From positions 30,001 to 62,000 of the forward strand of contig JAEOSH010000007.1 of the NCBI GenBank assembly GCA_016840465.1: 32,000 bases of DNA, in the 5' to 3' direction. Position numbers and translations under genes: made by a program. This DNA comes from Candidatus Baldrarchaeum yapensis (GTDB taxonomy: Archaea > Asgardarchaeota > Baldrarchaeia > Baldrarchaeales > Baldrarchaeaceae). Below are positions 8,952 through 12,042 of the stretch, piece after piece (the first letter of the stretch is position 1; each line of letters starts with the position of its first letter). The notes under the pieces are model-generated. The model made no database searches. It worked only from the letters and a program-made list of their open reading frames with translations, and was not told where the DNA came from.

Positions 8952-9374
8952 GTGTTGAAATTGCTCGATGAACTGGACAAGCGGATTATCGAAATATTAA
9001 AAGAGGATGCTAGGACGCCTTTCACCACCATAGCTAGCAAGTTAGGTATCTCTGAAGCAGCGGTAAGGAAGAGAGTCCGAAGGCTTGTCGACTCCGGTGT
9101 CATAAAGAAATTCACTATAGAAACGTCTATGGAGGGTGGCGCGCAGGCTATTGTAATGTTATCCGTCAATACAAAAATTCCGTGCCCCGAAATATCGAGG
9201 GAAGTGAGAAAAATAGAAGGAGTACGTGCAGTTTATGAGGTATCAGGCGAATACGATATTGTGGTGTTTCTGAACGGTCCGGATAATGATGCGCTCAACC
9301 GTATGATCGATGAGATAAGAAAAATAAATGGCGTTCTTAAGACGACAACAATGGTAATATTGAAGGCGTGGTGA
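8952..9374 (+). CDS. lysM: Lrp/AsnC-family transcriptional regulator, LysM-like
   Basis: N-terminal HTH (LDELDKRIIEILKEDARTPF...SEAAVRKRV). The RAM domain with PCPEIS, YEVSGEYD, NRMIDEIR and ILKAW closely resembles crenarchaeal LysM as I recall it. Confidence 0.8.
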   Translation: MLKLLDELDKRIIEILKEDARTPFTTIASKLGISEAAVRKRVRRLVDSGVIKKFTIETSMEGGAQAIVMLSVNTKIPCPEISREVRKIEGVRAVYEVSGEYDIVVFLNGPDNDALNRMIDEIRKINGVLKTTTMVILKAW

Positions 9375-10285
9375 GGCCGCTGAAGCCTCATGCACGGGAA
9401 TACCTAAAAGCAGCAGCGGAGATCGCAGAGAGAGTTCTCAAAGAGGCAGAAAAAATAATAAAACCGGGAATAAAGATAATTGAAATCTGTGAAAAACTAG
9501 AACAGTTGATAAGAAGGCTAGGAGGGCGCCCCGCGTTTCCAGTGAATATTTCAATAAACGATATCGCGGCCCATTATTCCTCCCCTCCCCAGGATCCAAA
9601 AAGAATACCTCACGGATCCCTCGTTAAGGTGGATATCGGGGTACACGTTAATGGCTATATTGTCGATATCGCAAAAACTCTAAACCTCGGAAGCGGCCTG
9701 ACGGATCTAATAAAGGCAACTGAGGACGCGTTGGAGGCCGCAATCGACCACATCAAGGCAGGTGTTAGGGTTTCGGAGATAGGTGCAGTGATAGAAAGAG
9801 AAATTAAAAGATATGGTTATAATCCGATAAAAAACCTTGCTGGTCATGCAATGGAACGTTATAATCTTCATGCTGGACTTTCAATACCAAATGTTTCGTC
9901 ACCACGCCCTTTGGGCATACTAGCCCCCAAGCTGCATGAAGGAATGATAGTGGCAATAGAGCCATTCGCCACCACAGGAAAACGAGCATATGTTGTTGAC
10001 GATCGCCCCATCTCGATATTTAAACTCACTGAGAAAAAGCCCAAAACAAGGGACGAGTCACGAATTTACTCTTTAATATGCAGGAGATGCCAGATGTTGC
10101 CTTTCTCATTAAGATGGTTTGACGAGATAACCGGATCCGGAAAAGCGGTGAAAACATTTACGAAAATGATATCAGAAGGGATAATTTATGCATATCCCCC
10201 ACTTAGGGAAGTCGATAAGAATCCTGTGGCTCAGGCAGAAACCACCGTGATCGTACATAAAAATGGAGCCGAAAGACTTGTATAG
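9368..10285 (+). CDS. map: Methionine aminopeptidase type II
   Basis: AAHYS, KVDIGVHVNGYIVDIA, NLAGH, AIEPFAT and AQAETTV. The last conserved His in the usual EHT appears as ETT. Confidence 0.92.
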   Translation: MVRPLKPHAREYLKAAAEIAERVLKEAEKIIKPGIKIIEICEKLEQLIRRLGGRPAFPVNISINDIAAHYSSPPQDPKRIPHGSLVKVDIGVHVNGYIVDIAKTLNLGSGLTDLIKATEDALEAAIDHIKAGVRVSEIGAVIEREIKRYGYNPIKNLAGHAMERYNLHAGLSIPNVSSPRPLGILAPKLHEGMIVAIEPFATTGKRAYVVDDRPISIFKLTEKKPKTRDESRIYSLICRRCQMLPFSLRWFDEITGSGKAVKTFTKMISEGIIYAYPPLREVDKNPVAQAETTVIVHKNGAERLV

Positions 10286-10681
10286 TTATCGTCTTCTCCT
10301 TCTCCTTCTTCTCCTTCTAGTAATACTTTTCGTAACCTTCTTTTCTTCGGTTATAGGCTCTCCTCTTTCTATTTTCTCCACAATCTCCCTTATGTGGCTC
10401 ATGCTCTTCTCCAAACCATCGTTTCCCTTTATGAAAACACATGTTACTTCCATTTCTTTGATGAAAGCCGCTATTGAGAACTCATCAAACGCAATGAACC
10501 GGGGCTTCGGCTTATCAAGGCTTCCACCCATGAACCACAAATAAATGTTCACGAAGAGGTCCTCTATGTTCACATTGAAGTTTTCATCGAGTTTTTTGAC
10601 TTCTTTGAGCACAGGACCCTGCTCTATATCGAAGTCTATCTTTACGATCGCCGCTATGTCTTTGACACCAAACTCAAACAC
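10286..10681 (-). CDS. Small hypothetical protein, probable longin/uDENN-like fold, with C-terminal poly-Arg tail
   Basis: 131 aa. The GTG start immediately follows the GTPase stop, with a GAGGTGA SD. It has an N-terminal hydrophobic strand plus FDIEQGP motif, an apparent beta-beta-alpha-beta-beta-beta-alpha pattern and 10 terminal Arg. The CDS is well supported; the fold call is inference. Confidence 0.7.
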   Translation of the reverse strand: MFEFGVKDIAAIVKIDFDIEQGPVLKEVKKLDENFNVNIEDLFVNIYLWFMGGSLDKPKPRFIAFDEFSIAAFIKEMEVTCVFIKGNDGLEKSMSHIREIVEKIERGEPITEEKKVTKSITRRRRRRRRRR

Positions 10682-11164
10682 TCACTTCACCTCCAGTGCC
10701 AATTTTTTGAACTCCTTCATGAGGATGTGATACATTTTCACTCTCTCACGAGGGTCTATTGCCACAAGACCATACGTGGGAACTTCTAATAAATCTTGCA
10801 CACGGTTCGGCTTCATCGCACCTGGGAGGTCCTGCTTATTCGCAATCGCAATTACACGGTATCCGTCAATTTTCTTTAACTCCTCTAGTATTTTCTTCGA
10901 CTGCAGAACATTCACGGGAGTGCTATCGGTCACCAGGATAACAAGGGTGCTCCCCTTGAGTATCTGGGGCCATAGAGTCCGAAACCTCTCATGCCCCGCT
11001 AGGTCGAAAAGCGAAACCTCATGCTCTCCGAATGATATTTTCCCGAGGTCAAAGCCTATAGTTGGTCTATATTCGAGCGGAGGTGGAGCACCGGTCAACA
11101 ATTTTATTATTGTCGTTTTACCAACCCCCGGTAGTCCCACGAAGCTCACTTTCACTGTGCCCAT
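10682..11164 (-). CDS. Small Ras-superfamily GTPase, Arf-like
   Basis: G1 GLPGVGKTT, Arf-type switch I PTIGFD, G3 DLAGHERFRTLW, G4 NKQD. 160 aa with no N-terminal amphipathic helix and no C-terminal Cys motif. Confidence 0.92.
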   Translation of the reverse strand: MGTVKVSFVGLPGVGKTTIIKLLTGAPPPLEYRPTIGFDLGKISFGEHEVSLFDLAGHERFRTLWPQILKGSTLVILVTDSTPVNVLQSKKILEELKKIDGYRVIAIANKQDLPGAMKPNRVQDLLEVPTYGLVAIDPRERVKMYHILMKEFKKLALEVK

Positions 11165-11226
11165 GTAGACCCCCTCTGTAAGACCGAACCCATCAATTTA
11201 AGAGTAGGTAATAGTAAGAAAGCAGG

Positions 11227-11568
11227 GTGAGAATGTTGGAAGAGTACGCCGAGAACCAGTTAACACGACGCGAGAAGATAATGAAGATACTAGAGGAATC
11301 GGACCACTTCATGACGGTAGATGAACTTGCGTATATACTAGAAATCAAAGGAAAGGAGCGAAGGAGGCTATACGAGGACATAACGCACGTTGCCAAGAGC
11401 GTAAGGGCACTCTCGCAGGGAAGAAAGATTCTTGTAATGCAACCCCCTCAATGCAGAAAGTGCGGGTTCGTTTTCACAAACTTAAAAAAGCCGTCGAAAC
11501 CTAGAAGATGTCCCAAATGTTATTCAACGTGGATAGAACCCCCAAAGTTCAAGATAGTTAAAAGATGA
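11227..11568 (+). CDS. Archaeal HTH plus Zn-ribbon predicted transcriptional regulator (COG3357-like)
   Basis: TRREKIMKIL...LYEDITHVAKS HTH, CRKCGFVF and RCPKCYSTWIEPPKF zinc ribbon. Confidence 0.85.
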   Translation: MRMLEEYAENQLTRREKIMKILEESDHFMTVDELAYILEIKGKERRRLYEDITHVAKSVRALSQGRKILVMQPPQCRKCGFVFTNLKKPSKPRRCPKCYSTWIEPPKFKIVKR

Positions 11569-11578
11569 AGTTGTATAA

Positions 11579-11914
11579 CTAGAATTTCCTCCTAAGTACA
11601 CAGAGGTACATATCTTCCTCCGTTGCTATAACTATTTGCTTCTCCTCGCCCCTCTCATTTACAAAATCGACTATCACAAAGAGCAACTTGCCCAGATTTA
11701 ACTCGTTGGCGGCCCTTCGTGCCTCCGTACTAACACTCTTCACATGAGCGGCGAGCGCCTCGGCGTGCGAAGTCTTAAGGGTGGACTGTAAGGGGAACCC
11801 CTCGTCATCAACTACAAGTACACCTTCGACTCCTCTTTCACGTGATAAGTTCTCAAGAGTCTTCTGCAAGGCTATCGGCAATAATAGATAACTTGAGTCT
11901 CTCTCGTCGCTCAT
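11579..11914 (-). CDS. Roadblock/LC7 (MglB/LAMTOR-like) domain protein
   Basis: Helix followed by GVEGVLVVDDEGFPLQS, a long helix (AEALAAHVKSV...ANELNLG) and three terminal strands. Start placed at ATG 11914 (MSDERD). Confidence 0.85.
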   Translation of the reverse strand: MSDERDSSYLLLPIALQKTLENLSRERGVEGVLVVDDEGFPLQSTLKTSHAEALAAHVKSVSTEARRAANELNLGKLLFVIVDFVNERGEEKQIVIATEEDMYLCVLRRKF

Positions 11915-12042
11915 AGGAACCCCTTGCACCACACTGAGTGTTCTTTTTACAATTAGTAACAATACCTTAATATAATGTGCGCTCCATCTACAATCAACGG
12001 AAGGTGTATTACCGATAAAGTAGTGGGACGGGGTGAGCAGTT

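Follow-up and report, generated by a model that had tools for sequence, protein, structure and literature searches.

The locus at positions 10286 to 11164 of a 32,000-nucleotide stretch of Candidatus Baldrarchaeum yapensis DNA (the whole stretch is called the window below) raises the question of whether an Arf-family GTPase gene and the short gene directly behind it encode a switch and a partner dedicated to it, and what such a partner would do. Asgard archaea have dozens of eukaryote-like small GTPases and longin or roadblock proteins. Matching regulators to GTPases is hard in these organisms, because the genes are mostly not in operons (PMC10933270), and in MK-D1 the GTPase genes do not, as a rule, share operons with longin or roadblock genes (Tran et al., PMC10933270). 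We found no published description of the present operon in the literature. Our answer is that the pair is conserved and co-inherited across about 12 Asgard families, that the predicted fold of the partner is of the longin type, and that the two products quite probably form a specific complex. The elements of the pair on which the argument starts are these:

10682..11164, minus strand: Arf-family small GTPase gene, 160 residues (open reading frame with Pfam Arf match).
10286..10681, minus strand: partner gene, 131 residues, its GTG start touching the GTPase TGA (open reading frame; no Pfam match).
10687..10694, minus strand: Shine-Dalgarno-like GGAGGTGA, within the 3' end of the GTPase gene and 5 bases ahead of the partner GTG (read from the sequence).

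The stop codon of the GTPase gene (TGA, 10684-10682) is followed with a gap of zero by the partner GTG (10681-10679), and the partner reading frame ends in TAA at 10288-10286. The coordinates of the reading frames thus agree with the preliminary description of this DNA, which had reported zero-gap TGA/GTG coupling to a 131-residue gene and a Shine-Dalgarno sequence inside the end of the GTPase gene; residues 9-28 of the partner are identical to the stretch it quoted. By its position, GGAGGTGA may act as the ribosome-binding site of the partner gene. The two reading frames also share one frame with a single TGA between them, so that a read-through product would be a 292-residue GTPase-longin fusion. 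This in-frame arrangement is probably chance, because most other lineages use an out-of-frame ATGA overlap.

The pairing of the two genes is far beyond chance. At all 80 loci from species-representative genomes the partner gene is immediately preceded, on its own strand, by an orthologous GTPase gene; the same holds for 29 of 30 loci from a phylum search, the exception stopping at a contig edge, and for 15/15 loci chosen from other GTDB families (the three sets overlap). The usual junction is the ATGA overlap, translational overlap being kept across about 10 GTDB families, and the pair is present in the cultured Lokiarchaeum ossiferum. Synteny in Asgard genomes, which the preliminary description had named as a check on the pair, therefore speaks for it. 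The genes are also inherited together. Among 400 genomes of the phylum (Promethearchaeota/Asgard), and counting as GTPase orthologues those with E ≤ 1e-52, we find the GTPase in 164 and the partner family, by its profile, also in 164, the partner usually once per genome. Family by family the two genes are distributed almost identically: f8, f18, f24-f28, f9, f15 and f10 have both, and neither was found in f7 (0/86), f5 (0/31), f21 (0/22), f14, f23 and others. Families f8 and f18 retain both genes far apart.

The features by which the GTPase can be classified are the following:

11114..11137, minus strand: G1/P-loop, GLPGVGKT (translation; G10, P12, G15 and K16 are invariant among 25 orthologues).
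10991..11005, minus strand: G3 motif, DLAGH (translation and orthologue alignment).
10829..10840, minus strand: G4 motif, NKQD (translation; invariant in the orthologue alignment).

The protein matches Pfam Arf at 2.1e-19 (70 bits, cutoff 22.3), and its nearest solved sequences are Arl8A/B, Arl3, Arl2, Arf1/6 and Asgard ArfR, which upholds the Arf-like assignment made at the outset. With switch I intact (PTIGF), it has all the elements of an Arf-type G domain, namely PTxGF in switch I, DxxG[QH] and NKQD. The G3 motif of the window's GTPase has His after DxxG, where most orthologues have Gln (DFGGQ). Only 4 residues stand ahead of strand 1, and the N-terminal amphipathic helix of the Arf family is accordingly missing. 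Judged from its translation, then, the GTPase departs from a textbook Arf in two features, the absent amphipathic helix and the His after DxxG.

The window's partner has no match in Pfam at E ≤ 10, and its assignment comes from structure prediction and from the alignment of its family, which give two features:

10364..10657, minus strand: predicted longin-type domain, residues 9-106, in the order beta-beta-alpha-beta-beta-beta-alpha (AlphaFold2 with alignment, and structure searches).
10613..10633, minus strand: F-D-x3-G-P hairpin FDIEQGP, residues 17-23, at the beta1-beta2 turn (alignment of 35 homologues).

AlphaFold2 supplied with 23 homologues (alignment A2) gave a model with a predicted local distance difference test score (pLDDT) of 82 and a core above 90; a single-sequence run reached a pLDDT of 54 and was not used. 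The model begins with two strands (residues 9-18 and 22-30) and a helix (39-51), continues with three strands (62-64, 68-75 and 78-85) and closes with a second helix (91-106); residues 107-131 are disordered. The helix, three strands and helix that the preliminary description had predicted after the opening strands are thus matched. The strands form the five-stranded antiparallel sheet of a longin, with no N-terminal helix; one C-terminal helix is modelled and the second longin helix is absent. Without an N-terminal helix, the order is that of a longin and not of a roadblock protein: the model opens with strand 1, and the partner has no match to Pfam Robl_LC7, the roadblock family of MglB-like proteins.

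A structure search on an AlphaFold model, also proposed in the preliminary description, returned longin and roadblock folds. Foldseek against the PDB finds LAMTOR2/3, Asgard roadblocks, the sigma and mu subunits of AP complexes and TRAPP (E ~2e-3, TM ~0.5), and matches among Swiss-Prot models are AP sigma, TRAPPC4, LAMTOR3, Ykt6, DENND11 and Npr2. VIA-align places LAMTOR2 at Z 8.5, BLOC-3 at Z 8.3 and the Lokiarchaeal longin 8yqg at Z 7.6, with further matches to Mon1-Ccz1, MglB, DENND1A, Lst4 and SRX (Z range 6-8.5). An Atlas shape search returns the partner's own family first, then sybindin and AP sigma. Nearly all structure matches outside the family are longin or roadblock GTPase platforms. 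On the model, then, the partner has a longin-type fold.

The hairpin narrows this assignment. A Gly-Pro closing the loop that leads into strand 2, the GP motif, is described as specific to the longins FLCN, NPRL2, SMCR8 and C9orf72, which are of the GTPase-activating protein (GAP) type, and as absent from adaptins, TRAPP subunits, DENND proteins and longins of the guanine nucleotide exchange factor (GEF) type (PMC12290439). In the partner model G22-P23 open strand 2, at the end of the loop that precedes it. D18, G22 and P23 are invariant among the 35 homologues, 90% or more of which also have F17; Y47, F50, G53 and P60 are invariant also, and F68 and F83 nearly so. F17-D18 stand four residues ahead of G22-P23, a spacing equal to that of C9orf72, in which the essential W33-D34 lies four residues ahead of G38-P39 (PMC12290439). 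The preliminary description had labelled the protein longin/uDENN-like and attributed its opening signature to NPRL2, FLCN, SMCR8, C9orf72 and DENN proteins. The longin half of that label agrees with the model and the structure searches, and the first four proteins agree with the published motif. The uDENN half and the DENN proteins have to be dropped, given that DENND proteins lack the motif (PMC12290439); nor is there a DENN module in this 131-residue protein with its disordered tail.

The same evidence bears on the alternative that the partner is a classical longin or roadblock GEF or scaffold (of the TRAPP, Mon1-Ccz1, Ragulator or DENN kind), which would bind the nucleotide-free or GDP form and activate the GTPase. 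Longin platforms are mostly GEFs (PMC10933270), and LAMTOR2, TRAPP subunits, Mon1-Ccz1 and BLOC-3 are among the top fold matches. Set against this, the invariant residues appear from model and alignment to be placed in the beta1-beta2 hairpin and in the loop that follows helix 1, away from the helix face that classical platforms use, and GEF-type longins reportedly do not carry the GP motif. We consider such a role improbable.

The partner is a member of an unannotated, Asgard-only family. An exhaustive search of 1.8 billion cluster representatives returned only 12 relatives at E ≤ 1e-3, a search for related loci with the window's single partner protein found nothing, and "hypothetical protein" is the name that members bear in public records, NEF87_004960 of the cultured Lokiarchaeum ossiferum among them. 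Most members have about 185 residues and consist of a longin domain, an acidic linker and a winged helix. The C-terminal domain matches Pfam HTH_DeoR (1.2e-8), HTH_11 (7.3e-8) and ArsR (1.1e-7). Profile searches of solved chains with the family matched the winged helix only, in each case a winged-helix regulator, and found no match for the longin domain. The position of the acidic linker and winged helix is taken in the window's partner by a different element:

10289..10318, minus strand: ten-arginine tail, residues 122-131, modelled as disordered (translation, AlphaFold2 model).

P0002, a relative with 55% identity, keeps a comparable tail (KRRKRRRRRR), and genus g2 of the same order has a 112-residue form of the partner with a short basic end. 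In a tree, the window's short form falls in a four-member clade (support 100/97) within an unresolved set of winged-helix forms. Loss of the winged helix is probably more economical than a primitive short form; it is the outgroup and not the tree that favours it, a paralogous family described below also having a winged helix at the aligned position. The preliminary description had seen here a stand-alone, minimal ancestral prototype. This does not fit a family in which most members carry a C-terminal winged helix and the short clade stands among them; the short form is a convenient minimal version, and primitive status for it is not supported. Fused forms of at least 350 residues were not found in the family, which is weak evidence. 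As a separate observation, members in families f15 and f10 (L008:1471-2052, L010:1343-1933, L054:2486-3055) have a different C-terminal module of about 70 residues in place of the winged helix, with two G-[IL]-[PG]-type hairpins (IPIEL...GIPY...GLG.KR). Our guess that it is a helix-hairpin-helix comes from this reading of the hairpins, beyond which there is only a match to Pfam IMS_HHH at E 0.14.

A polybasic tail invites another interpretation. The polybasic tails of Ras and Rho proteins bind acidic lipids, and the arginine tail, which P0002 retains, could likewise be a membrane anchor by which the partner recruits the GTPase, itself without an N-terminal helix, to anionic lipids as a minimal membrane-recruitment module. 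An acidic linker and a transcription-factor-type winged helix, which most family members have at this place, are not a membrane-binding design, and no conserved gene for a transmembrane or lipid-binding protein adjoins the pair. This makes a membrane anchor quite improbable in our view.

The GTPase profile also finds proteins of 276-292 residues that join a longin-like domain, at the N-terminus, to a GTPase of the same clade (marked by TDSTP and NKQD). Overlapping the genes of these fusions are genes for proteins of 350-400 residues that start with W-D-x3-G and continue with winged helices. Such paralogous modules occur in the window's own genome (contig 76, L147), on the metagenome contigs L151 and L152, and in G003 and G004, where about 3 kb separate them from the partner. 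A profile-profile comparison of the two partner families gave E 2.4e-4 and a probability of 43%, co-linear over 152 columns that span longin domain, linker and first winged helix. Because the paralogous module repeats it, the pairing of this GTPase clade with longin and winged-helix proteins is recurrent. On contig 76 (G000, L147:64-3380, minus strand), a 351-residue W-D-x3-G longin and winged-helix protein is encoded overlapping a 276-residue longin-fused Arf-like GTPase; the module there also includes a 180-residue coiled-coil protein and a 303-residue longin and winged-helix protein with weak matches to DUF742 and NPR2. The layout is repeated in G003/G004 and in L151 and L152.

We propose the following model. 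The two genes would be one transcription and translation unit, producing a small Arf-family GTPase switch and a dedicated longin-fold docking partner. The partner would most likely touch the GTPase close to the nucleotide pocket, and do so through the invariant F-D-x3-G-P hairpin at the loop end of its sheet; C9orf72 and other GP-motif longins contact Arf and Rag GTPases in that place. The complex would depend on the nucleotide state. The longin domain may read or reset the switch and, like MglB acting on MglA, do without an arginine finger. The C-terminal module, a transcription-factor-type winged helix in most lineages and the ten-arginine tail in the window's partner, would tie the complex to a polyanion, most likely nucleic acid. 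For this fuller model, in which docking depends on the nucleotide and uses the hairpin end of the longin sheet while the C-terminal module tethers the complex to nucleic acid, we lean on balance in favour, less firmly than for the complex as such; within it, GAP-like resetting without a finger and a pure effector role are about equally likely.

Several observations weigh against this model. The fold scores, which are moderate, do not set GAP-type longins apart from others, and at the sequence level the longin domain of the partner matches neither Pfam NPR2 nor folliculin nor any solved longin. No arginine is conserved in the beta4-beta5 turn, and R61, although frequent, is not invariant (K, L, M, Q or T elsewhere). 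The orthologue threshold for the GTPase was set after the score gap had been seen (stand-alone proteins at least 196 bits, fused paralogues at most 166 bits). That the arginine tail binds nucleic acid is proposed solely by analogy with the winged helix that it replaces. What the data show is gene layout, fold class, motif, conservation, co-inheritance and the domain architecture of relatives; physical binding and its surface, any influence on the GTP cycle and what the tail binds are what we infer, and a GAP or GEF role is putative. A complex prediction of the GTPase with GTP and partner residues 1-112 (self-built alignments) scored 0.07 (mark 0.32), which is neither for nor against binding.

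A further set of observations of the same tendency concerns the window's closest relatives (P0002/L150, G003 and G004), in which no GTPase gene lies directly upstream of the partner. The P0002 contig has about 290 bases of non-coding-looking DNA 5' of the partner and no GTPase gene; in G003 and G004 the partner stands beside a PF0610-like gene, and the GTPase is absent there. In the four genomes of family f2, which are 82-91% complete, no GTPase orthologue was found at E ≤ 1e-52. Taken with the unlinked genes of f8 and f18, the relatives that have the partner without an adjacent GTPase point to a simpler possibility, that the two proteins do not interact and their adjacency reflects co-regulation of unrelated functions. 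Translational overlap kept across families, co-inheritance even where the genes are unlinked, a partner fold that is that of a GTPase platform, and the same pairing in paralogous modules make this very improbable.

The remaining alternative is that the partner is a true GAP of the C9orf72-SMCR8, FLCN or NPRL2 kind, in which a longin dimer inserts a catalytic residue and switches the GTPase off. The GP motif reported as specific to this class, the C9orf72 spacing of F-D-x3-G-P and the longin plus winged-helix architecture that the relatives share with NPRL2/3 all fit; NPRL2/3 have an N-terminal longin and C-terminal winged helices (Levine 2013, PMC3747258). In the nearest Atlas cluster 19% of members have a Pfam NPR2 match (score 0.89, a lead only). 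A conserved arginine finger beside the GP motif is present in FLCN and SMCR8 and absent in C9orf72. No arginine anywhere in the partner's longin domain is invariant in the alignment, and the beta4-beta5 turn is variable, with K at position 75 in the window's partner and K, R, D, E or H in relatives, so that the absence of arginine there noted in the preliminary description stands. Moreover, C9orf72, the best motif match, is the non-catalytic subunit of its complex, the conserved pair encodes no second longin subunit, and NPR2 and folliculin are not among the Pfam families listed for the 35 family members (0/35). We rate a true GAP as unlikely. In our estimate the fuller model of docking and tethering stands ahead of each of the three roles considered, namely a catalytic GAP with its own finger, a classical GEF platform and an arginine tail that anchors the partner to membranes.

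Known systems compare with the pair as follows. Like C9orf72-SMCR8(-WDR41), the Asgard partner has a predicted longin fold, a [W/F]-D-x3-G-P hairpin with identical spacing and an Arf-family client (here predicted); unlike it, the partner has no DENN part, no SMCR8-like arginine-finger subunit, no WDR41 and no sequence-profile match, and at 131-190 residues Asgard partner proteins are far from the ~480-940 of C9orf72-SMCR8. NPRL2/NPRL3 of GATOR1, the GAP for RagA/B, have a GP-motif longin followed by one or more winged helices, as do most family members and the 350-400-residue paralogues, but the window's partner lacks the winged helix, the arginine finger, DEPDC5 and a Pfam NPR2 match, and its client is Arf-like, not Rag. 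MglA/MglB are likewise two small genes of an operon for a GTPase and a platform-fold regulator, MglB being a roadblock GAP without an arginine finger. They differ in that MglB has roadblock order with an N-terminal helix and no GP motif, MglA is not of the Arf family, and a nucleic-acid-binding module is absent. In the actinobacterial conservon (CvnB roadblock, CvnC DUF742, CvnD GTPase), too, a GTPase is encoded with a platform-fold and a winged-helix-like protein, but platform and helix-turn-helix are on separate proteins, a sensor kinase is included and the GTPase is MglA-like; a longin and winged-helix paralogue of the present genome matches DUF742 at 5.5e-6 (26.6 bits, just below the 27-bit cutoff). 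Two features of the GAP-type class are missing, a conserved arginine finger and a sequence-profile match. The partner would by analogy work at most like C9orf72, as a finger-less subunit, or like MglB.

Some Asgard longins carry the GP motif together with an arginine finger, and their client GTPases have been posed as a question (PMC12290439, Traffic 2025). The 15 published Asgard 'FLCN/SMCR8-type' longins (PMC12290439) share the motif with the present family and, going by their published description, would differ from it in having the finger. NPRL2-like longins of Asgards are already reported in a preprint (Liu et al.). The conserved, translationally coupled pair is one concrete candidate answer to the client question, and offers a switch and partner ready-matched for experiments; the window's version, being small and from a genome whose proteins are thermophile-like, lends itself to structural work. 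Should the winged helix or the arginine tail truly bind nucleic acid, a eukaryote-type GTPase switch would be tied to gene regulation instead of membrane traffic, and the reading of Asgard "trafficking" signature proteins would change. A more far-reaching idea is that [F/W]-D-x3-G-P Asgard longins are direct archaeal kin of C9orf72 and NPRL2-type longins, that the pair keeps the original Arf/Rag-like client, and that an archaeal switch wired to DNA through the winged helix, as a GTPase-controlled transcription or chromatin factor, was rewired to membranes later in eukaryotes. We regard this as decidedly unlikely; if true, the window's thermophile-like short form (160 + 131 residues) would be the smallest natural version of the module.

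The surroundings of the pair are as follows. Upstream of it lies a probable promoter region:

11165..11226, no strand assigned: divergent intergenic region of 62 bases, with a TATA-like TTAAATT (11195-11201, minus strand) 31 bases ahead of the GTPase ATG (read from the sequence).

The window's 62 bases contain no GATATTA-type word. Elsewhere, GATATTA or GATAATA-type words, often as inverted pairs, occur in the 220 bases 5' of the GTPase gene at 50-65% of loci (L004-L137), where ~0.1-0.15 per 220 bases would be expected; with loci so closely related, the count is not independent. Divergent from the GTPase gene, on the plus strand at 11227-11568, is a PF0610-like gene (winged helix and zinc ribbon). 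It is a recurrent neighbour, a homologue adjoining the partner gene in G003 and G004, of the same order, and lying near the pair in G150 (L056). Four long-form partners match its N-terminal winged helix weakly (best E 8e-4).

A true Roadblock/LC7 gene lies two genes from the GTPase at 11579-11962, minus strand (Pfam 5.2e-13; weak LAMTOR5 match). We considered it as a third member of the module and rejected it: this query detected no homologue in the 1.5 to 3 kb around the pair at other loci, where neighbours vary, and the three-gene neighbourhood of GTPase, longin and roadblock is local to the Candidatus Baldrarchaeum yapensis genome. On the other side, the partner TAA abuts the TAG of a convergent methionine aminopeptidase gene (map, 9368-10285) with no spacer, at 10285/10286, so that on the plus strand the ten arginine codons are a 30-base pyrimidine tract directly after the map stop. 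The convergent abutting layout is also kept in the 55%-identical relative (L150). Finally, one contig with the Asgard gene pair (L107, DATKTW010000082.1) is deposited as part of an actinobacterial metagenome-assembled genome, 'Candidatus Nanopelagicaceae bacterium', a naming that is probably a binning error.

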